Assembly: GCA_016932595.1 (NCBI GenBank)
Contig: JAFGCP010000019.1
Location: forward strand, 1-47,149
DNA length: 47,149 bases
Reading direction: 5' to 3'
Source of the DNA: Deltaproteobacteria bacterium
GTDB lineage: Bacteria; Desulfobacterota; WTBG01; CAIYCZ01; CAIRTM01
The position numbers and the translations under genes were made by a program. The notes below the pieces were generated by a model. That model saw nothing but the letters and a program-made list of their open reading frames with translations, did no database searches and was not told where the DNA came from. Numbering within the stretch: position 1 is the first letter of the stretch; the number at the start of each line of letters is the position of its first letter. Positions 1,206-41,862 of the stretch are shown here, piece after piece.

Positions 1206-3857
1206 TTACGGGCAGAGCGGGGTACAGAACGGTCCGTTTGCAAAACCGCTGCCGCCGCCGAATGAACAGCCGATAGACGGCATGCCATAGGCATACCAAT
1301 TCTTGCTGCTTTGCGTAAATGTGCAGCGGGTAGCGTCGCTGGTCATACCATTGGATACCTGGCAGCTTTCGCCGCGGGTACACACGCAGTTTGCAGCGCC
1401 ATTGCCTGTGGCCAGACAGGCGGCTTCAATAGCTGCCTGGTCATTGGGCCAGCCGTCGCATTCAGCAAAGTCGGCGCAGGAGGTGTCGGAATAATCATTT
1501 TCAAACCGGCAGCCCCAAACCGTGTCGTCATTGGGCAGGGGCTGGTTGTCGCCGCAGGTCGGACACTGGTCAGCGCTTGCAGCGCAGGTGCCGTCTGAGC
1601 AGCGGGCAGGCTTGTCGACCGGGCAGCACTGCGAAGCGTCAGCCACGCACTCATTGTTCGGGCATTGAACAGGCAGCGCAGGATTCGGGCAGGCAGCAAG
1701 ATTGCACTCGCCGTTTTCGCACTTATCAAGCGTGATGTCCATGCTCAGGTTCTGCTGCGGTCCGCCGCCAAGGGTGATGGCAGGCTGGTCCTTGCCCCAT
1801 ACATAGTCGCCGTCTGCTGGCAGCGGCGGCCAGTCGGTTGAGTAGTACAGGCCGACATAGAGCTGGTAATTACCGGCAAGGCAGCTTTCCCGGTAATAGG
1901 TGCAGCCGGGAAGTACCATGGTATAGGGATTGTCTGCATTGATATCAGGATTCTGAACGAGATTGTAGTCCGTGCCTCCGTCGGGCGGGCCCTGCGGCGG
2001 GAAGGTCCAGGATGCTGCTTCATAGAAAAAAGCCATGAGCTGAGCAGGCTGTGCTGTCAGCTGCTCGGGAACACGAATAGTAAGCGTCAGCTGATCGCAC
2101 TGGTCGCAGACATCCGAGGGACGCGGGGTCGGCGTGAAACCGCCAAAATCGCAGGGGCCCCAGCAGGTGCCGGCAGCATTGCAGGTCTGTGAGCCGATGG
2201 CGGTCTTGGGATCATCACCAATCTGCGCACGGTTGCACTGCCTGGTCTCACCCGGCGTACAGTTTTCAGCCTCATCGCAGGAAACCGGCGTTGCCGGGCC
2301 ATTTCTGATGCAGCGCACATCTGCATAGCTGTTGATATGATTGTAGCAGACGCCGCCGATATCAAACAGAATGCTGGCGATCCAGTCGGGACGGTTGGAA
2401 GCTGCTTCAAGGGCCCAGAATTCAAGGGAGTGAACGTTCTGGGTGCCGATATCAGGCCTGTGGCAGGAACCGGTAAGCTCTGCCGGCCAGTAACAGCCTT
2501 CAATACCGGGGCCGCCTGCATCGGGCGCTCCGAGGCATGCCGCATCCTGGCCCTCTTCAAATGAGCTGCCATCCGTGAGCGGGCAGTCGCCGCTGGGCAT
2601 TGTGTCGGGATTGCCTCTGACAAGGCTTCTCAGCTCAGCAATAGTCGGCACTCTCCAATCGTCATAGCCTGCAATCTGCAGGCCGTCGCAGTAGCGCGGC
2701 GCATCCTGGGAGGCGATGCCAAGGTCTGCGCCCTCGCCGCTGATCGGATAGGCGTCTTTCTGAGGATCCTGCCAGCAGATATTCGTGTCCGGATCGCACC
2801 AGAAGGAATAATTGGTGCACTGGCACTGTTCCCAGCCTGAGCCGTCTGCCTTGGCAAGCTGGGTGCTGGTCGTACCGTTGGGACAGTAACATGACTGGCT
2901 GCCGGCATAGCGAATTATAATGCCGCCATTGGCGACCATGTAGATTTCATTTGCCGAGGCGCCCCAAATTTTATTCAGCTGCTGTGTCGTGGGCACCGTA
3001 ATCGTGCTCCAGGAGGTACCGTTGAATTTAAGCAGTGTTCCTGCAGCGCCAACAGCGTACACATTGTTCATGTCGGTGCCCCAGACTGACCTGAGGTTCT
3101 GCGTGGTCGGGCTTGTCATTTTAGCCCAGTTGCCGCCGTTCTGACGCCGCAGGATAATGCCGCCGTCGCCGACTGCAAAAAGATTATCAGCATCAATTCC
3201 CCATATCCCTCTAAGTGTTGAAGACACAGGGGATTTCCAGGTGTCGATATTTCTATGGCCCCAGAAATCATCTTTTACCATATAGCCCAGTATGCCCTTG
3301 GAACCGGTAACAACCTGATCACCGTTTGGCAAAGTCCAGGAACCATACAGGTCATTACTGTGCTCATGCTGCTCCTGGGAGCTGAAGCTGCTGTCAGTGC
3401 CATTGACAATATTATAGTACTGGGGCACAAAAAATACCCATATGGTATTGTTTTTACCAAATGCATTTATTTTTCCATTGCTCGGATCAGGCCCGCCAAT
3501 CGCGTACAGCGGATAATTGAGCGACTGGCTGTTGGCCTTTGACCAGCCGCTGCCCGTATTGCGAAAAATGCCACGATAATCACCAACGGCATACACATTT
3601 CCCGCGCTGGGTCCATAAACATCATTAAGGTTCCACGTTGTGCCGGAAGGCTGTGTGCTCCAGGAACTGCCGTCAAAATGCAGAATCAAGCCGGATGCAC
3701 CCACAGCATAAATATCATTTCCTCCAAAACCATAAATACTGTTGAGATTTGCCGTTGTGCCTGATGACATGGTTTCCCAGCCGGGCTGAGCAGCAAAAAC
3801 AGAACCTGAAATAATAAAAGCAAATAATAAAATTAAAAAAGCTATTTTTTTATACAT
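1206..3857 (-). CDS. large secreted cysteine-rich protein: N-terminal beta-propeller-type repeats + DUF1566 (Lcl C-terminal-like) domain + Cys-rich C-terminal modules
   Basis: 883-aa ORF with signal peptide MYKKIAFLILLFAFIISGSVFAAQ. It has about 8 repeats of the form W..(S/T)SGTT.NL..(I/V)(Y/W)G....(I/V)YAVG..G.I. The motif GYDDWRVPTIAELRSL is typical of DUF1566. The last 560 aa contain about 45 Cys. Confidence 0.8.
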   Translation of the reverse strand: MYKKIAFLILLFAFIISGSVFAAQPGWETMSSGTTANLNSIYGFGGNDIYAVGASGLILHFDGSSWSTQPSGTTWNLNDVYGPSAGNVYAVGDYRGIFRNTGSGWSKANSQSLNYPLYAIGGPDPSNGKINAFGKNNTIWVFFVPQYYNIVNGTDSSFSSQEQHEHSNDLYGSWTLPNGDQVVTGSKGILGYMVKDDFWGHRNIDTWKSPVSSTLRGIWGIDADNLFAVGDGGIILRRQNGGNWAKMTSPTTQNLRSVWGTDMNNVYAVGAAGTLLKFNGTSWSTITVPTTQQLNKIWGASANEIYMVANGGIIIRYAGSQSCYCPNGTTSTQLAKADGSGWEQCQCTNYSFWCDPDTNICWQDPQKDAYPISGEGADLGIASQDAPRYCDGLQIAGYDDWRVPTIAELRSLVRGNPDTMPSGDCPLTDGSSFEEGQDAACLGAPDAGGPGIEGCYWPAELTGSCHRPDIGTQNVHSLEFWALEAASNRPDWIASILFDIGGVCYNHINSYADVRCIRNGPATPVSCDEAENCTPGETRQCNRAQIGDDPKTAIGSQTCNAAGTCWGPCDFGGFTPTPRPSDVCDQCDQLTLTIRVPEQLTAQPAQLMAFFYEAASWTFPPQGPPDGGTDYNLVQNPDINADNPYTMVLPGCTYYRESCLAGNYQLYVGLYYSTDWPPLPADGDYVWGKDQPAITLGGGPQQNLSMDITLDKCENGECNLAACPNPALPVQCPNNECVADASQCCPVDKPARCSDGTCAASADQCPTCGDNQPLPNDDTVWGCRFENDYSDTSCADFAECDGWPNDQAAIEAACLATGNGAANCVCTRGESCQVSNGMTSDATRCTFTQSSKNWYAYGMPSIGCSFGGGSGFANGPFCTPLCP

Positions 3858-34839: not shown

Positions 34840-36723
34840 TTACTGCTGCGGCTTATGCCGTATGGTCTCTATATACTGTTCAAATTTAAATTTCGGGTCA
34901 TCATCGGGCCCATGACAGGTTCGGCATATCTGCTCGACAACACAGCTGTCGCATGAACCGCCCAGGCCGACGATATAGTCCTGCCCCTTTTTCTCGGGAT
35001 TCTGTATATGCCGCTCGCCAGGACCGTGACAGGCCTCGCACTGAACACCCTCTCTGCCGGGGGCTGGATAACCGCCGGGACTGCCCGAACCCGTAGTAAA
35101 CCGATATTTTTTCTCCGGCGGCGCCGCTGCAGCCGCCGGAGAATGTGCTACAGCCGCATGGGCTGTTGTTGACCACTGTGCATACTCATGCTCATGGCAT
35201 TTTTTGCATGATTCCGCCCCGATATACGCAGCCGGATTTCCGAAAAGATCATTTTTCCGCTTATGCTCGCTTAGCAGTTTCACCCGCTGCTCCCGGCTCA
35301 TGGATGCAATGCCGGATGCAGCGCTATGCAAAACTTTCGGAAAGCGGCGGGCGAAATTGAAGTTGAGCGATTCCTTTTCCGTATGGCAGGACAGGCACAG
35401 GGCCTTCCATTCTTCTGAACTTTTCTTGTGCGGCTTTATGCCGGTAAATGCCGCGCAGGCTTCATAGCCGGGGCCATGGCAGGATTCGCACTGTACGCCT
35501 TCTAAGAAGCGTCTATTCATTTTGTCATTAATCGCATAGCCGCCTTGCTGACCCCAGCCCGTTACATGACAGCTGACGCATGCAGGGTCATCCTCCCTGC
35601 CTTTGCGGTACACAGATTTAAATGCATCGGCGTGTCCGGTAAGGCTCCACTGTATATGCTCCTTTTCGTGACAAATTACGCAACGGTCCTGGCCAGAATA
35701 GCCTTTGGGATTTAACAGAGGCTTATTCGGCAAACCGCACAGTTTGCGCAACTCCATAAAATACAAATCCATCATCCTGCCTGAAAAGCCTGTATGCTTG
35801 GCATAAATACGGCCAGAACGGTCTATGATAAACCCCATCGGCACAGAGCCGGCAAAAGACGGAAACAAAGAAGAAATGCTGTTGTCCGTATCCGCTATAA
35901 CAGGAAAAGAATAGCGCTGCTGCTTGATGAACAGGTTTGTCTGCTCCTGATTGAAACGGCTCACGGCAACAACAAAAAACTTGCCCTTGAATTCATCTCC
36001 CATAAGCAGGCTGTTAAGAAAGGCCAGTTCATCACGGCAATGGCCGCAGGTTGGCGACATGAACACAATAACAACAGGCATCATGGCGTACAGCTCTTGT
36101 ATGCTCATCTTCGTGCCATCGAGTTTCGGCAGATCAAAAACAGGGGCCATCGGCCTGTCGCCAAGAACAGGCTCGTCAGCGGGGATAAAGCCCGTCTTGA
36201 TGCTGCGATTGACGAAAACATGCAACGCCTGCGTGAAATTTTTCTGCGGCGGAATATTTACAGCAGCCAGGCTGCTCATGAGTCCGCCCTGTTTGTTAAA
36301 TATATACAGAGAAAGATCACCCGCTAGATTCAGGCTTTTAGCTGCCACTTTTGGGTTTTCAAGCAGCAGGGGGAAAGTGGCGTTATGATTCTGGTTGAAT
36401 TTAACAACTTCATCAGTGCGGTTGTCATTGATATTGAGGCCCAGCACCTCGAAATTATATTCTCCTCTGATGCGATACATGTCCTGCATAAACTTGACAG
36501 CCTCGCCCGCGCGGGGATTGTCGATGGAATAGGCAAGCAGCAGAATTGTTTTGCCCTTGAAGCGCTCCGCATCAAAAGGCGCGGACACCGGCTGATGAGG
36601 CACAATGCGCTTGACGGGGGCAGGAACATTGACGGGAGGACGAGCAAAGGGTTGTGAATAAACGCTCTCCGCGGTGGGGAATACTAACCATAATAGAACA
36701 GCCGCAACAATTTTTTTTCTCAT
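34840..36723 (-). CDS. periplasmic fusion: two TlpA/thioredoxin-like domains + heptahaem cytochrome c
   Basis: 627 aa with a signal peptide. The second redoxin domain carries CGHC (SPTCGHCRDE). The first has no CxxC. The C-terminal half has seven CxxCH motifs: CVICH, CVSCH, CESCH, CLSCH, CKKCH, CEACH, CRTCH. Confidence 0.85.
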   Translation of the reverse strand: MRKKIVAAVLLWLVFPTAESVYSQPFARPPVNVPAPVKRIVPHQPVSAPFDAERFKGKTILLLAYSIDNPRAGEAVKFMQDMYRIRGEYNFEVLGLNINDNRTDEVVKFNQNHNATFPLLLENPKVAAKSLNLAGDLSLYIFNKQGGLMSSLAAVNIPPQKNFTQALHVFVNRSIKTGFIPADEPVLGDRPMAPVFDLPKLDGTKMSIQELYAMMPVVIVFMSPTCGHCRDELAFLNSLLMGDEFKGKFFVVAVSRFNQEQTNLFIKQQRYSFPVIADTDNSISSLFPSFAGSVPMGFIIDRSGRIYAKHTGFSGRMMDLYFMELRKLCGLPNKPLLNPKGYSGQDRCVICHEKEHIQWSLTGHADAFKSVYRKGREDDPACVSCHVTGWGQQGGYAINDKMNRRFLEGVQCESCHGPGYEACAAFTGIKPHKKSSEEWKALCLSCHTEKESLNFNFARRFPKVLHSAASGIASMSREQRVKLLSEHKRKNDLFGNPAAYIGAESCKKCHEHEYAQWSTTAHAAVAHSPAAAAAPPEKKYRFTTGSGSPGGYPAPGREGVQCEACHGPGERHIQNPEKKGQDYIVGLGGSCDSCVVEQICRTCHGPDDDPKFKFEQYIETIRHKPQQ

Positions 36724-36899
36724 GAGAACACATCCTTAACAAGGTAATTTAGAAAACACTATAATTACTAGCGTTTTTTTTGTCAAGCAGGCGTGATGTA
36801 ACAGCGGGCATGATGTGCGCAGACAGCTGCTAACTAAGTCTTTGAATTCCGGCTCACCACGAGCAGCACAATCGCAATAAGTGGCGTCCTGATGGGCGA

Positions 36900-37033: not shown

Positions 37034-37480
37034 ATGACAGACAACCCTTCATGCTGCGAACCCGCAGTAAAGACATACAGCACATTTGAAGAATTTCGGG
37101 GACTCGCCGTTCGGAGCCTTGATACCACGGATAAATGCATCTTTTACTGCGGCGCTGTTGAGAACCTTGCCGCGGTGTTTGATGAAGAATTCGACCGGGG
37201 CTTTTACATTCCGACACGTGCCAAACGCGGCATCGCCCTGCAGATGCTCATTCCTGATCGGCCGGAATTATATGACTACAAAAGCCGCGACAGCCACGAA
37301 AACCGCGAAACCAGATTCCTGCGACCGGACATGCCCATGGACACATCGTTCATGATCTATGACGACACGGTCATTTTCTTTTCCGATGCCGGTACGCGAC
37401 GCGCCTTTGAAGTCACTTCGCCCTATGTAGCACAAACCATGAAAGTTCTTTTTAACGATATCTGGCGAATGACGCCCTAA
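37034..37480 (+). CDS. hypothetical protein (148 aa) with N-terminal CC pair
   Basis: GAAAGGAA RBS before the ATG at 37034. MTDNPSCCEPAVKTYSTFEEF... No family recognised. The track ORF starts further upstream, inside the leader. Confidence 0.6.
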   Translation: MTDNPSCCEPAVKTYSTFEEFRGLAVRSLDTTDKCIFYCGAVENLAAVFDEEFDRGFYIPTRAKRGIALQMLIPDRPELYDYKSRDSHENRETRFLRPDMPMDTSFMIYDDTVIFFSDAGTRRAFEVTSPYVAQTMKVLFNDIWRMTP

Positions 37481-37500: not shown

Positions 37501-37677
37501 ATGAAAATAATCGTCGATCCAAAAAAATGCAGGGGCTCTCTTGAATGCATCAAAATCTGCCCGCAGCAAGCAATAAAGCTGGTGAACGGAAAAGCCGTCA
37601 TCGACCAGACAAAATGCGATGGTGACGGTATCTGCATACCGGCCTGCCCCAATGGCGCTATTCAGCCCGACGTATAA
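37501..37677 (+). CDS. 58-aa 4Fe-4S ferredoxin-like protein (below the ORF-track cutoff)
   Basis: My own translation: MKIIVDPKKCRGSLECIKICPQQAIKLVNGKAVIDQTKCDGDGICIPACPNGAIQPDV*. There are two C-X5-C-X3-CP motifs. It starts 20 nt after the preceding stop. Confidence 0.7.
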   Translation: MKIIVDPKKCRGSLECIKICPQQAIKLVNGKAVIDQTKCDGDGICIPACPNGAIQPDV

Positions 37678-37789
37678 TCCCGTCGGCACAAACCCCAGAG
37701 CAGGTTTCCATACCTTACTGGCCGATATGGCAGCCTGCAGTATCTCAGGGGCGGCGCAGCATGTGAAACTACTGTGATACAGTCAGCTA

Positions 37790-39006: not shown

Positions 39007-39690
39007 ATGAACTGGGACACAGAAGAAATTAAAAACCAGCTACTAGCTGTTTCGCGGCGGGACTTTATCAAATTTTCAGGAATGGCCGTCGTTGGCATCT
39101 ATATGACCGGCTGCACCCCCGGGCTGGGCTTTAAAAAAGCCTCCTGGGGGTTCATCCTCGTTGATATGAATAAATGTCAGGGCTGCCAGTCCTGCATGCT
39201 GGCCTGCTCCCTGGTGCATGAGGGCGCCATAAACCTTTCCTCTTCACGCATCCAGGTGCTGAGCGACCCTTATGGCAAGTTCCCCGATGACATAACGATC
39301 TCGCAATGCCGCCAGTGCACGAAACCGGCCTGCCTGCAAGCCTGCCCCACGGGGGCCCTTGCCCGTGACCGCAGGCACGGCAATGTTGCCACCATTGACC
39401 CAGCCAAATGCATAGGCTGCCAAAAATGCATCAATGCATGCTCCTGGGCGCCGGCACGGGCTATCTGGAACAATGAAACAGGAAAATCGCAAAAATGTGA
39501 TCTATGCGCGAGCGCTTCATACTGGGATGAAACAGGCGGCCCAAAGGGCAAAAAGGCCTGTTTGGAAATATGCCCGATGGGGGCCATCGCCTTTTCACAT
39601 ATCATACCCGCTCAGGATGATCCGGACAGCTACAATATCGATCTGGATAACACTACCGCCCAGGCAGCTGGTGCTGCCCGCGCAGGATAA
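39007..39690 (+). CDS. Tat-signal 4x[4Fe-4S] ferredoxin-type subunit (DmsB/YdhX-like)
   Basis: Twin-arginine motif SRRDFIKF plus a hydrophobic stretch ending in MTGC. Cys clusters: CQGCQSCMLAC, CRQCTKPACLQACP, CIGCQKCINAC, CDLC...CLEICP. Confidence 0.85.
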   Translation: MNWDTEEIKNQLLAVSRRDFIKFSGMAVVGIYMTGCTPGLGFKKASWGFILVDMNKCQGCQSCMLACSLVHEGAINLSSSRIQVLSDPYGKFPDDITISQCRQCTKPACLQACPTGALARDRRHGNVATIDPAKCIGCQKCINACSWAPARAIWNNETGKSQKCDLCASASYWDETGGPKGKKACLEICPMGAIAFSHIIPAQDDPDSYNIDLDNTTAQAAGAARAG

Positions 39691-39771
39691 TCCATACCTG
39701 TCACCATGAACGGGCGTCAGTAGCGCAAGCACAGCTATAGGCGATTTCAACTCACAGTGGAGGACATCGAT

Positions 39772-41862
39772 ATGTACGGCTATACGGGCAAGCTGCTCAG
39801 AATTAACTTAACGACCAGAGCCGTTTCTGAAATGGCAACGAACGATTATACACAATGGGGAGGTGGTCACGGCATTGGCTCAGCCGTTTTTTTCGACCTT
39901 GTACCCGACAAAACAATCGGCTGCTATGACCCGGCAAATGTCGTTACCATCATGACATCGCCCCTGTCAGGAACCCTCACCCCGGGCTGCTCATCACGCT
40001 CCGAAGTTCAGGGCATCGGCGCACAGGCCTACCCTTACAGCTGGTTTACCAGAAGCGGCTTTGGCGGCAGATTTTCATCCATGCTGAAATTTGCCGGCTG
40101 GGATGGAGTGATTATTGATGGCGCTGCAGACCAACCGGTGTGGGTCGATGTCAGAAATGATTCAGTCACCATCCGCAACTGCTCGGATCTTTCCCTCTGG
40201 GGTAAAGATACCTGGGATTGCCAGGCAACACTTTGGAACTATGTACGAGGAACAGACGCTACCAATGCCTGGAGCACCCCGCAGACAGGCTCCGGCGGGC
40301 GCACAACGCAGCGGCCGGCCGTTCTTGCCATAGGGCCTGCCGGCGAGAATCTCAGCCGTTCTGCCGTCCTCATCCACGATGCAGCCTGCGCTTCGGGACA
40401 GGGCGGCTTTGGCGCTGTATGGGGCTCAAAAAAGCTCAAGGCCATAAGCGTTATCGGCACGGGAAGCATCCCTATTTATGACCCCAAGGCGCTCATGAAA
40501 ACACGCATTGATCATGTTCGCAAGTATGCCAATCATACCGATAACCCAATTTCCACCTCGATTCCGAACAATTTTCAAAGCCCGCCGGGCGCCGGGGTGG
40601 TATGGGAAATGATACCTGGATTCAAACATACTTCAGGCATGCGGCCTTCGGCATGCATCGGCTGTCACAGTGCCTGCAAGTTGCGCTATGCGGACGGGCT
40701 TGGCAATGATGCTGTCTGTTCAGATTCAGCATTTTATTGTCTGGGAGCAAAAAGCCCTGATATCGCCTATCGCGCTACCGACCTTTTGAATACATTAGGG
40801 ATCAATTCCCTTGAAGCATACTATTGCATAGGTTATGTCCTGGAACTGCTCAAAATAGGTATTATCGGCCCGGGCACGGCCATCGAATGCCCCAGCTTCA
40901 TCACCTTAGATAATTACGGAACCTATGAGTTTATTGAGCAGTTTTTAAAAATGCTGGCCTACGGAGATGACGGAAAGGGCAACCCTTCTCAGTTCGGGCA
41001 GGATATCGAACAAGGCGCCCTGCGTGCCGCTGCAAAATGGGGCAGGCTCGATGAGGATCTCGCCTCAGGTCTGCTGAACTACCCCTACTGGGGATACCCG
41101 TATCATTATGACCCCCGTGCGCAGCTTGAGTGGGGCTACGGCTCTATTCTCGGTGACCGTGACATAAATGAGCACTGCATCTACCGGCTCAAATACCTGG
41201 GTGGCGGAGCTTTTTACGGTAAGAATGAAGCGCCCATTACCATGGGAGAAGCTGTGAACATTATACTGGCTAAAATGGCCCCCTTTAACGATGATGAACT
41301 CATACTGGATTTCAGTGAGACAAATATGTATTCCGAACACATGGCAAAGTTCGTGTCGTGGCACCGTTATTATACGCGGTTCTGGAAGCAGTCTATGCTC
41401 TTCTGCGATTCGCGGTGGCCGGATTTTGTGAACCCGTATGCCGATGATTTCGTCGGCTCCACAGGTCAGGCAGAACCTGCATATCTGAAGGCAGTGACCG
41501 GCAATGATTTTTCTTTTGAGGACGGCATCGAGCTTGGCAAAAAAATCTGGAATCTTGATCATGCCATCTGGACACTGCAGGGCCGCCATCGCGACATGGT
41601 GAACTTTTCAGAATTTTATTATACGAACACCTGTAAAGATGCTGCTAAGAATTATTTTGGTAAAGTCGATGGCACATGGACCTACATAAGCGCTGAAGGA
41701 AGAACGGTTGACCGGGTAAAATTCGAGGAGTTTAAAACGGCCTTTTATGAGCTGCAGGGCTGGGATACGGCTTCGGGCTATCCGACCAGAGCAACCCTTG
41801 AATCACTCGGCATGAAAGACGTTGCCGATGAACTGTCTGCAAAAGGAAAACTCGGCTCGTGA
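39772..41862 (+). CDS. aldehyde:ferredoxin oxidoreductase-family (W/Mo-pterin) enzyme, long YdhV-like form
   Basis: MYGYTGKLLRINLTTRAVSE is the N-terminal AOR signature. GPAGENLSR, GFGAVWGSKKLKAISV and C-terminal LQGWDTASGYPTRATLESLG are also present. GGAGGA lies 7 nt before the ATG at 39772. Confidence 0.88.
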   Translation: MYGYTGKLLRINLTTRAVSEMATNDYTQWGGGHGIGSAVFFDLVPDKTIGCYDPANVVTIMTSPLSGTLTPGCSSRSEVQGIGAQAYPYSWFTRSGFGGRFSSMLKFAGWDGVIIDGAADQPVWVDVRNDSVTIRNCSDLSLWGKDTWDCQATLWNYVRGTDATNAWSTPQTGSGGRTTQRPAVLAIGPAGENLSRSAVLIHDAACASGQGGFGAVWGSKKLKAISVIGTGSIPIYDPKALMKTRIDHVRKYANHTDNPISTSIPNNFQSPPGAGVVWEMIPGFKHTSGMRPSACIGCHSACKLRYADGLGNDAVCSDSAFYCLGAKSPDIAYRATDLLNTLGINSLEAYYCIGYVLELLKIGIIGPGTAIECPSFITLDNYGTYEFIEQFLKMLAYGDDGKGNPSQFGQDIEQGALRAAAKWGRLDEDLASGLLNYPYWGYPYHYDPRAQLEWGYGSILGDRDINEHCIYRLKYLGGGAFYGKNEAPITMGEAVNIILAKMAPFNDDELILDFSETNMYSEHMAKFVSWHRYYTRFWKQSMLFCDSRWPDFVNPYADDFVGSTGQAEPAYLKAVTGNDFSFEDGIELGKKIWNLDHAIWTLQGRHRDMVNFSEFYYTNTCKDAAKNYFGKVDGTWTYISAEGRTVDRVKFEEFKTAFYELQGWDTASGYPTRATLESLGMKDVADELSAKGKLGS

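Follow-up and report, generated by a model that had tools for sequence, protein, structure and literature searches.

A redoxin–heptahaem cytochrome fusion family that may couple periplasmic disulfide chemistry directly to haems

Introduction

In the bacterial periplasm, thiol systems exchange electrons through membrane quinone enzymes (DsbB, VKOR and MauE) or through the transmembrane thiol relays DsbD, CcdA and ScsB, which draw on cytoplasmic thioredoxin; in mitochondria, thiol electrons pass through a flavoenzyme to cytochrome c. Can a thioredoxin-fold enzyme also be hard-wired to a multihaem cytochrome? This question is raised by a 47,149-nt stretch of DNA (the window; contig JAFGCP010000019.1 of assembly GCA_016932595.1, Deltaproteobacteria bacterium), in which one gene encodes an exported protein that joins two redoxin folds, the second with a CGHC active site, to a cytochrome half with seven c-type haem motifs. 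Such wiring would be a further solution to the problem of periplasmic electron exchange, one that suits anaerobes rich in periplasmic cytochromes. The reading that we favour, at a probability of roughly 0.4, is that the fusion is a self-contained periplasmic thiol:disulfide oxidoreductase coupled to its seven haems and working in the oxidising direction. Functional coupling of some kind between the redoxin cysteine pair and the haems appears probable; given such coupling, the balance tips only slightly towards an oxidase, and the reverse (reductase) direction is nearly as likely as the oxidising one.

Architecture and distribution of the fusion

The protein has four parts, namely a Cys-less redoxin domain, the redoxin domain with the CGHC site and two cytochrome c554-like modules (Table 1). 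In a whole-protein Pfam scan, AhpC-TSA matched two stretches, best at residues 192-307 (E 1.3e-19; 70.8 bits; cut-off 26), Redoxin reached E 2.3e-10 (40.9 bits; cut-off 26.6) and Cytochrome_C554 (PF13435) also matched two stretches (E 4.5e-18; 66.4 bits; cut-off 20.8). This agrees with the three-part layout proposed in a preliminary description made from the sequence alone, whose position and length for the open reading frame (ORF) were exact; the seven CxxCH motifs that it counted lie at residues 348, 382, 412, 443, 506, 562 and 600. The product had also been called secreted, and its N-terminus, MRKKIVAAVLLWLVFPTAESVYS, reads as a signal peptide of the Sec type with no twin-arginine motif; in the AlphaFold2 (AF2) model, the predicted local distance difference test score (pLDDT) is below 50 over residues 15-41. 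Maturation of c-type haems acts on the unfolded exported chain, and the Sec signal fits this need for export. For the full-length protein, AF2 with a 66-sequence alignment gave a pLDDT of 84.4 and a predicted template modelling score of 0.82; because these values are high for a four-domain protein, they suggest that its inter-domain arrangement is defined. In a Foldseek comparison with the PDB, ResA, DsbE, StoA, TlpA and related extracytoplasmic thioredoxin folds lead the matches at E ~1e-8, with a target-normalised template modelling (TM) score of 0.87-0.88 for 3gl3 and ~0.79 for ResA (1st9). The top 50 of the full-length fold search contain thioredoxin folds only, and no solved structure with the whole fusion architecture was found by Foldseek in the PDB. 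Hidden Markov models and Foldseek therefore both uphold the earlier assignment of the N-terminal half to the thioredoxin fold.

The preliminary description had named an assembly chimera of two genes as the explanation that would undo it. However, a word-indexed search covering 5.8 billion proteins returned ~80 clusters that share the full-length architecture at 43-84% identity. These derive from assemblies that are independent of one another, and contigs of 308 kb and 1.27 Mb are among them. A chimera is thus ruled out, and the fusion is genuine. Named members in this search are called 'redoxin domain-containing protein' or 'peroxiredoxin' only, and the full-length orthologues are all titled as metagenome-assembled genomes (MAGs) of uncultured Thermodesulfobacteriota or of a 'delta proteobacterium'. 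An orthologue occurs in 20 of 41 related genomes, a set that includes five genomes of the protein's own genus; the genome of origin, which is 76% complete, holds a second paralogue on another contig (56% identity). A profile search of 1.84 billion representatives gave 173 at E <= 1e-30, in long, short and TPR-extended forms. The short form (~470 aa) carries one redoxin domain and eight haems, and one of its members, a Pseudomonadota MAG by title, is named 'Cytochrome c-554 precursor'; a 1082-aa form from Planctomycetota/Phycisphaerae MAGs joins TPR repeats to a redoxin domain and eight haems. No C-terminal partner other than the cytochrome was found for the double-redoxin N-terminal half. By its record names, the family is large and extends over several phyla, under the generic or misleading labels quoted above.

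No curated equivalog covers the protein, as all NCBIfam matches lie far below their cut-offs. We found no characterised homologue of the fusion, and neither full-text literature searches nor two surveys of multihaem cytochromes yielded a description of a thioredoxin-fold/multihaem fusion. The domains are known folds (a ResA/TlpA-type redoxin and c554-like multihaem modules). Three clusters of close relatives (P0005, P0007 and P0008; 846-894 aa) carry in addition a DedA/VTT domain (PF09335) fused in frame at the N-terminus, with the former signal peptide retained as an internal hydrophobic segment. At one of the two loci with this form (L004, 8001-10541; the other is L007), tatA lies directly upstream, and more VTT-domain genes and ArnT-like glycosyltransferase genes are nearby. 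A possible selenoprotein variant, the orthologue in genome G017, was rejected because its in-frame TGA falls upstream of the gene start.

Active site of the second redoxin domain

The motif YSIDNPRA in domain 1 (family consensus YSIDDPRA, conserved) aligns with the former active site; because the domain has no Cys, it is degenerate and redox activity is excluded. To call it a degenerate TlpA-like domain without CxxC, as the preliminary description did, was right, yet on its own (residues 24-186) it is barely above the AhpC-TSA cut-off (26.6 bits vs 26; E 6.4e-6). In domain 2, the CGHC site that had been noticed is present, and a helix predicted at residues 227-241 places C226 and C229 at the N-terminus of helix 1. 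Over 63 full-length members the active site follows the pattern FSPxC-x-[H/N]-C, with His as the third residue of the motif in 44 and Asn in 14. CGHC, the motif of PDI, belongs to the protein studied, and CSHC is the site of most family members. CPHC, the motif of DsbA, is the commonest site in the superfamily (28 of 60) and is also present in its deeper branches; judged from this alignment, the ancestral site is of the DsbA type, CPHC. Work on DsbA and PDI has established that a His in CxHC makes the redox potential higher and is typical of oxidases and isomerases. The residue before the presumed cis-Pro, Pro295, is Val or Ile in the family, and Val precedes the cis-Pro in DsbA. Arg, Lys, Asn or Thr stands before the first active-site Cys, so the WCxxC context with its Trp is absent; the CcdA-linked ResA-like protein of the same genome carries WCPYC.

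With ResA, TlpA and CcmG (DsbE), domain 2 shares the fold, export, a CxxC that starts helix 1, a Pro that is invariant where the cis-Pro is expected, and an acidic residue three positions past the second active-site Cys, here the invariant Glu232. It is unlike them in having a DsbA/PDI-type CxHC with no Trp before it, and in being joined to both a Cys-less twin and a multihaem cytochrome. CcdA or DsbD supplies the known members with electrons; here CcdA is separate and has its own ResA-like partner. Read residue by residue, the active site blends oxidase-like and reductase-like traits. Of the marks of DsbA membership, the CPHC-type site is found and the DsbA profile with its inserted helical domain is not, and neither DSBA nor Thioredoxin_4 of Pfam matched the fusion protein at E <= 1. 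Pfam matches of the DsbB, VKOR or MauE type were likewise not found in this soluble exported protein, whose likeness to those enzymes would be one of functional analogy only.

Two rival explanations arise from these matches. One takes the protein for a thiol peroxidase (peroxiredoxin) of the periplasm that draws its electrons from its own cytochrome, in line with AhpC-TSA as the best Pfam match, with the name 'peroxiredoxin' that several sources, including JGI, give to members, and with the use that an anaerobe would have for oxygen or peroxide defence. This was rejected on the motif, since PxxxT/SxxC is absent and the site is a thioredoxin-type CxxC (SPxCxHC); moreover, the structural neighbours are mainly of the ResA/DsbE/TlpA type, with AhpE as the sole peroxiredoxin in the top 50 (ranks 36-49, TM ~0.70), and we consider the explanation very improbable. 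The other is a built-in ResA/CcmG-like maturation helper that keeps the 14 haem-binding Cys of the protein itself, or those of other apocytochromes, reduced, while the haems carry electrons in the ordinary way and have nothing to do with the CxxC. Its best named matches are indeed ResA, StoA and DsbE, and Glu232 is at what we take to be the residue with which ResA recognises apocytochromes. Nevertheless, the genome has a separate CcdA-ResA pair, many other multihaem cytochromes do without such a fusion, and a CxHC site without WCxxC is atypical for ResA/CcmG; a helper would also leave unexplained both the additional Cys-less redoxin domain and the extra Cys or CxxC by haem 7, which is described below. 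Such a role is improbable, if somewhat less so than that of a peroxiredoxin.

An invariant CxxC ahead of the last haem

The idea in the preliminary description that thiol chemistry is wired to the haems gains indirect support from two features, the ancestral CPHC-type site and a family-wide extra Cys or CxxC directly before the last haem motif. In the protein studied, this extra pair, C591/C594, lies five residues ahead of the motif (CDSCVVEQICRTCH). Residues 591-603 form one helix in the AF2 model, which carries haem 7; the extra CxxC is therefore at the N-terminus of a helix, the classical setting of a redox-active CxxC, as in thioredoxins, and ~1.5 turns from the haem-7 Cys. Like every haem Cys and like C226, C229 and C423, C591 and C594 are invariant in the 63 full-length members; C423, C591 and C594 had gone unnoticed in the preliminary description. 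The extra CxxC persists in relatives at 31-35% identity ('DKCDSCVILQICGSCH') and in nearly every complete superfamily member. Both regions are covered by 58 further superfamily sequences; 47 of these combine the redoxin CxxC with the whole extra CxxC, and in 56 the redoxin CxxC occurs together with a Cys at the 594 position. A CxxC-x5-CxxCH-like motif was seen in only one of ~70 redoxin-less c554-like proteins from other phyla. A separate type, represented by P0145, P0153, P0154 and P0163 (~480 aa), combines a Cys-less thioredoxin-like N-terminus and eight haems with CxxC-x5-CxxCH.

Two other assignments were considered for the extra Cys, a haem and a metal cluster. An eighth haem at CDSC was rejected, because the residue after the motif is an invariant Val, which leaves no axial ligand, and because there are too few conserved His. 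An iron-sulfur cluster on C423/C591/C594 is unlikely with a Sec rather than a Tat signal and with haem maturation on an unfolded exported chain.

The cytochrome half and Cys423

The cytochrome half is an internal repeat, with four haems in module 1 and three in module 2. Deeper relatives have four haems in each module, so the subfamily has lost one; compared with the eight-haem relatives, the missing haem is the second of module 2. Module 1 aligns with Nitrosomonas cytochrome c554 (CycA) over haems 1-3 (E 4.5e-10) and shares with it four CxxCH motifs at equal spacing, including the 'CxxCHVTG' of haem 2. Unlike cytochrome c554, the fusion carries its modules as a tandem pair, of which the second holds three haems; it also has an additional CxxC ahead of the final haem, Cys423 in place of the 'GPGxxH' His of module 1 and no link to hydroxylamine oxidation; its score for the CycA equivalog NF043010 is 58.8 bits against a cut-off of 400. 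The best NCBIfam match to the cytochrome half is to the UshA-like (seleno)protein family NF041198 (E 8.8e-41; 140 bits, below the cut-off of 275), and spans profile positions 403-518 only, that is, the cytochrome tail. Members of that family are likewise exported and combine a Cys/Sec motif with a c554-like module, but their catalytic domain has a metallophosphoesterase/SoxB-like fold and is not a redoxin.

Module 2 (H572) and 38 of 63 remote c554-like modules read CExCHGxGxxH at the third haem motif, from which we infer that the conserved GxGxxH His is a distal ligand of a neighbouring haem. In module 1 of the subfamily, Ala or Ser stands at this His position, directly ahead of the invariant Cys423. 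Deeper branches keep the His ('CHGRGGPH'), and a Planctomycetota clade also has a Cys aligned at the Cys423 position ('CHGPxSGC'). Only five non-motif His are conserved (H364, H466, H522, H572 and H623) for seven haems; together with the invariant Cys423, this suggests that the protein has one five-coordinate haem, like haem 2 of cytochrome c554, and one His/Cys haem.

These features bear on a third rival explanation, in which the protein is an oxidoreductase of sulfur compounds (polysulfide, thiosulfate/tetrathionate or organic polysulfanes) with a Cys423 His/Cys haem as its catalytic centre, and the redoxin CxxC and C591/C594 serve as sulfur carriers or resolving thiols. The fusion would resemble TsdA, SoxXA, DsrJ and MccSep in being a multihaem protein of the periplasm with a candidate thiolate-ligated haem and additional redox-active chalcogen residues next to it, and in MccSep a His/Cys haem acts with a selenocysteine to catalyse S-S chemistry, the reduction of polysulfide (bioRxiv 10.1101/2025.11.18.688581). 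The invariance of Cys423 one residue past a conserved His position, the aligned Cys of the Planctomycetota clade and the small number of conserved His would all suit such an enzyme, as would the presence in the same genome of a SoxB-related UshA-like protein (CGC vs CGU) fused to a c554-like tetrahaem module. On the other hand, the searches detected no homology in sequence between the fusion and TsdA, SoxA or MccSep, nor any to the His/Cys-haem sulfur enzymes as a group. Cys423 is specific to the subfamily, its ligation being that of a candidate, and the canonical His takes its place in the deeper superfamily branches, so that a His/Cys haem is not a family-wide catalytic centre. Furthermore, the gene has no conserved sulfur-metabolism neighbours, and dsrA was not found in the fusion-bearing relatives, which are therefore not sulfate reducers with a sulfide-rich periplasm. 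On balance, we judge this explanation improbable, though less so than a maturation helper.

The UshA-like protein just mentioned is a 459-aa lipoprotein (L097, G000:C430, 2167-3546, + strand). It is a true NF041198 member (376 bits), distantly SoxB-like, with an ENCGC motif in which Cys takes the place of the Sec in the family name (PCGU), and with a C-terminal c554-like tetrahaem module; it is thus a second Cys-motif enzyme fused to a c554-like module in this genome. Frames of 450-480 aa resembling it are present in most relatives.

Disulfide systems in related genomes

The preliminary description had suggested that the fusion could act without a DsbB or DsbD membrane partner. Over the 41 related genomes, CcdA (DsbD_TM) was found in 40, DsbA-like proteins (Thioredoxin_4) in 31, MauE in 19, DsbB in 2 and VKOR in 0. 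The protein's own genus has CcdA and DsbA-like proteins, and none of its five genomes has DsbB, VKOR or MauE. As regards DsbB, the suggestion is thus compatible with the gene content of the own genus, which also lacks MauE, recently reported to stand in for DsbB in Thermodesulfobacteriota (bioRxiv 10.64898/2026.03.05.709764); as regards DsbD, it is not, since CcdA and a canonical ResA-like redoxin are present. With DsbA-like proteins, one or two copies of the fusion and none of DsbB, VKOR and MauE, the own genus is a 'gap' case, that is, one with DsbA-like proteins and no known disulfide generator. Some bacteria with DsbA-like and disulfide-bonded exported proteins and no known generator are on record in Dutton et al. 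2008, as that work is quoted in bioRxiv 10.64898/2026.03.05.709764. Among the 20 gap genomes, the fusion is present in 12. A DsbA-like protein accompanies it in all 20 fusion-bearing genomes and is found in 11 of the 21 others (p = 0.0005).

Several observations concern the thiol proteins of these genomes. In the genome of origin, CcdA (234 aa) is immediately followed by a ResA-like lipoprotein with WCPYC (L096, G000:C75, 2636-3864, - strand), a canonical reductive pair whose adjacency recurs in many relatives. The DsbA-like protein of this genome (L094, 4953-5975) has a CPYC site and an N-terminal beta-propeller-like extension. In several relatives, Thioredoxin_4 genes contain one in-frame TGA (for example, G007:C109:14236-14715, G008:C17:8180-8656 and G009:C61:128-607) and may, on that account, be selenoprotein forms. 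The secreted protein with about 45 cysteines that had been noted elsewhere in the window (1206-3857, - strand) does have a signal peptide and 45 Cys; it is 883 aa long with an Lcl_C domain (PF07603), and all its Cys lie in the C-terminal 560 residues. It is likely a heavily disulfide-bonded exported protein, encoded in a genome without DsbB, VKOR or MauE.

Direction and mechanism of electron transfer

We chose a relay model because it is the simplest that uses every conserved element; its electron-transfer steps, the His/Cys ligation and the direction are all inferred from sequence, predicted structure and distribution. In the oxidising direction, the C226-C229 disulfide in the ResA-fold domain would oxidise a substrate dithiol, and this pair would be re-oxidised through thiol-disulfide exchange with C591-C594. 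The latter pair would hand its two electrons singly to the haem chain at haem 7, and from the haems they would reach respiratory complexes or soluble cytochromes of the periplasm. In cis, the cytochrome half would thus take the role that DsbB, VKOR or MauE has for DsbA, with haems replacing the quinone. By analogy with the redox-inactive domains of PDI, the Cys-less domain 1 could be a docking or substrate-binding platform, and Cys423 may give one haem of module 1 a His/Cys ligation, a type recurrently tied to S-S bond chemistry. Three points lead us to favour oxidation slightly: the CxHC/CPHC motif, a genus without a known disulfide generator, and the parallel with the fusions of VKOR and MauE, which are often joined to a thioredoxin-like partner (bioRxiv 10.64898/2026.03.05.709764).

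Several findings weigh against this reading. The first concern distribution. Across the 41 genomes, the distribution of the fusion is not significantly complementary to that of DsbB or MauE (counts 8/12/12/9; Fisher p = 0.35). In addition, because eight genomes have DsbA-like proteins and none of DsbB, VKOR, MauE or the fusion, the fusion is not a general answer to the gap. The association between the fusion and DsbA-like proteins is confounded by phylogeny, being due largely to one family that lacks both. Others concern the relay itself. Among the 58 superfamily sequences with both regions, nine that have the redoxin CxxC keep just one relay Cys, that of the 594 position, and two carry the extra CxxC behind a Cys-less N-terminal domain. 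The P0145-type relatives have the relay CxxC without an active redoxin domain, so that their partner, if any, must be encoded separately. The remainder concern direction: the ResA/TlpA/CcmG fold class is mostly reductive, Glu232 is at the position that we take to be that of ResA Glu80, short-type relatives have Thr before the presumed cis-Pro (a trait of reductases and isomerases), and low-potential haems in the periplasm of an anaerobe are probably mostly reduced, which would favour the reverse direction.

The last group of findings is also what speaks for a cytochrome-fed periplasmic disulfide reductase, in which electrons would flow from the cytochrome pool through the seven haems and C591/C594 to C226/C229. 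Its substrates could be protein disulfides (isomerisation or repair), thiol peroxidases, methionine sulfoxide reductases or small disulfides, and such a path would need neither cytoplasmic thioredoxin nor CcdA. The best NCBIfam and PDB matches of the redoxin half are reductive enzymes of the ResA/TlpA/DsbE type, an anaerobic lifestyle with many low-potential multihaem cytochromes would suit it, and the conserved relay Cys are compatible with both directions. However, CxHC/CPHC sites are poor reductants, as is well established for DsbA and PDI, the WCxxC with its Trp that is typical of reductive TlpA, ResA and CcmG is missing, and the genomes already hold CcdA with a canonical WCxxC ResA-like reductant. 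We consider the reductase less likely than not, and only a little less probable than the oxidase.

The oxidising reading can be set beside known disulfide-forming systems. As in DsbA-DsbB, DsbA-VKOR and DsbA/MauD-MauE, a thioredoxin-fold CxHC/CPHC domain would work with a Cys-pair module that passes electrons to a respiratory cofactor; unlike DsbB, VKOR and MauE, which are four-helix quinone membrane proteins, the proposed generator is a soluble multihaem c-type cytochrome with no relation to them in sequence or fold. As in the mitochondrial Mia40-Erv1-cytochrome c pathway, thiol electrons would end on a cytochrome c. In Erv1, FAD converts two-electron to one-electron chemistry, whereas the fusion has no flavin domain; in place of the FAD, the haem-adjacent CxxC, possibly with the His/Cys haem, would do the conversion.

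If the oxidising reading were proven, the family would be a fourth, quinone-independent bacterial route for periplasmic disulfide formation, with a soluble multihaem cytochrome bearing a haem-adjacent CxxC in place of DsbB, VKOR or MauE and fused to a DsbA-like partner; we consider that it amounts to this doubtful. Thiol electrons would then drain straight into the periplasmic cytochrome network, the gap of anaerobes with DsbA-like proteins and no known disulfide generator would be partly filled, and two-electron disulfide chemistry would be coupled to one-electron haems in a flavin-free and iron-sulfur-free manner. In either direction, the family may link disulfide exchange in the periplasm to a chain of haems with no need for the customary membrane partners, and it offers a test case for haems that drive, or take electrons from, a disulfide.

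The gene and its neighbourhood

The features of the gene are collected in Table 1.

Table 1. Features of the fusion gene and its product, with positions in the window
Feature	Position	Strand	Details or basis
Whole ORF, redoxin-redoxin-heptahaem cytochrome fusion	34840..36723	-	627 aa plus stop; ATG start
Candidate sigma-70-like promoter, TTGACA-17-TATAGT	36758..36786	-	11/12 consensus match; ~35 nt upstream of ATG
Sec-type signal peptide, residues 1-23 (MRKK, hydrophobic core, AES/VYS)	36655..36723	-	Reading of sequence
Domain 1, degenerate redoxin fold, residues ~45-177	36193..36591	-	Profile scan and alignment; no Cys
Domain 2, ResA/TlpA-fold redoxin, residues 181-328	35740..36183	-	Pfam, structure matches
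Active site C226-G-H-C229	36037..36048	-	Both Cys invariant
Pro295, invariant, presumed cis-Pro of thioredoxin fold	35839..35841	-	Alignment
Cytochrome c554-like module 1, residues 336-470, haems 1-4 (CVICH, CVSCH, CESCH, CLSCH)	35314..35718	-	Pfam, alignment
Cys423, candidate distal haem ligand (His/Cys haem)	35455..35457	-	Invariant in 63/63
Cytochrome c554-like module 2, residues 494-627, haems 5-7 (CKKCH, CEACH, CRTCH)	34843..35244	-	Self-alignment
C591-D-S-C594-VVEQI-C600-R-T-C603-H604, invariant extra CxxC, proposed relay disulfide	34912..34953	-	Alignment, AF2

A metallophosphoesterase gene lies downstream and is convergent with the fusion gene, which therefore looks monocistronic. The candidate upstream promoter fits such a gene; it is a consensus match only and weak evidence alone, since three promoter-type sites were found against 2.6 expected in shuffled sequences. 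No conserved operon partner of the fusion was found across distant orthologues, and because no neighbouring gene is conserved among them, the protein probably works with general partners.

Divergent from the fusion gene is a gene for a 148-aa protein (37034-37477, + strand) with no Pfam or NCBIfam match, followed by one for a 58-aa 2x[4Fe-4S] ferredoxin (~37503-37680, + strand). A copy of the 148-aa gene with 78% identity occupies the same divergent position by the second fusion paralogue (L095, G000:C407, 1427-1897); this neighbour is kept in genus relatives only and is absent beside distant fusion orthologues. Further along (39007-41862, + strand), a poly-ferredoxin-like protein with a Tat signal (RRDFIKFSG) is encoded ahead of a 701-aa protein of the aldehyde:ferredoxin oxidoreductase (AOR) family. 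AFOR_N and AFOR_C domains are found in locus L001, which is syntenic to this region, and the arrangement suggests an exported or membrane-associated tungsten/molybdenum enzyme of the AOR type.

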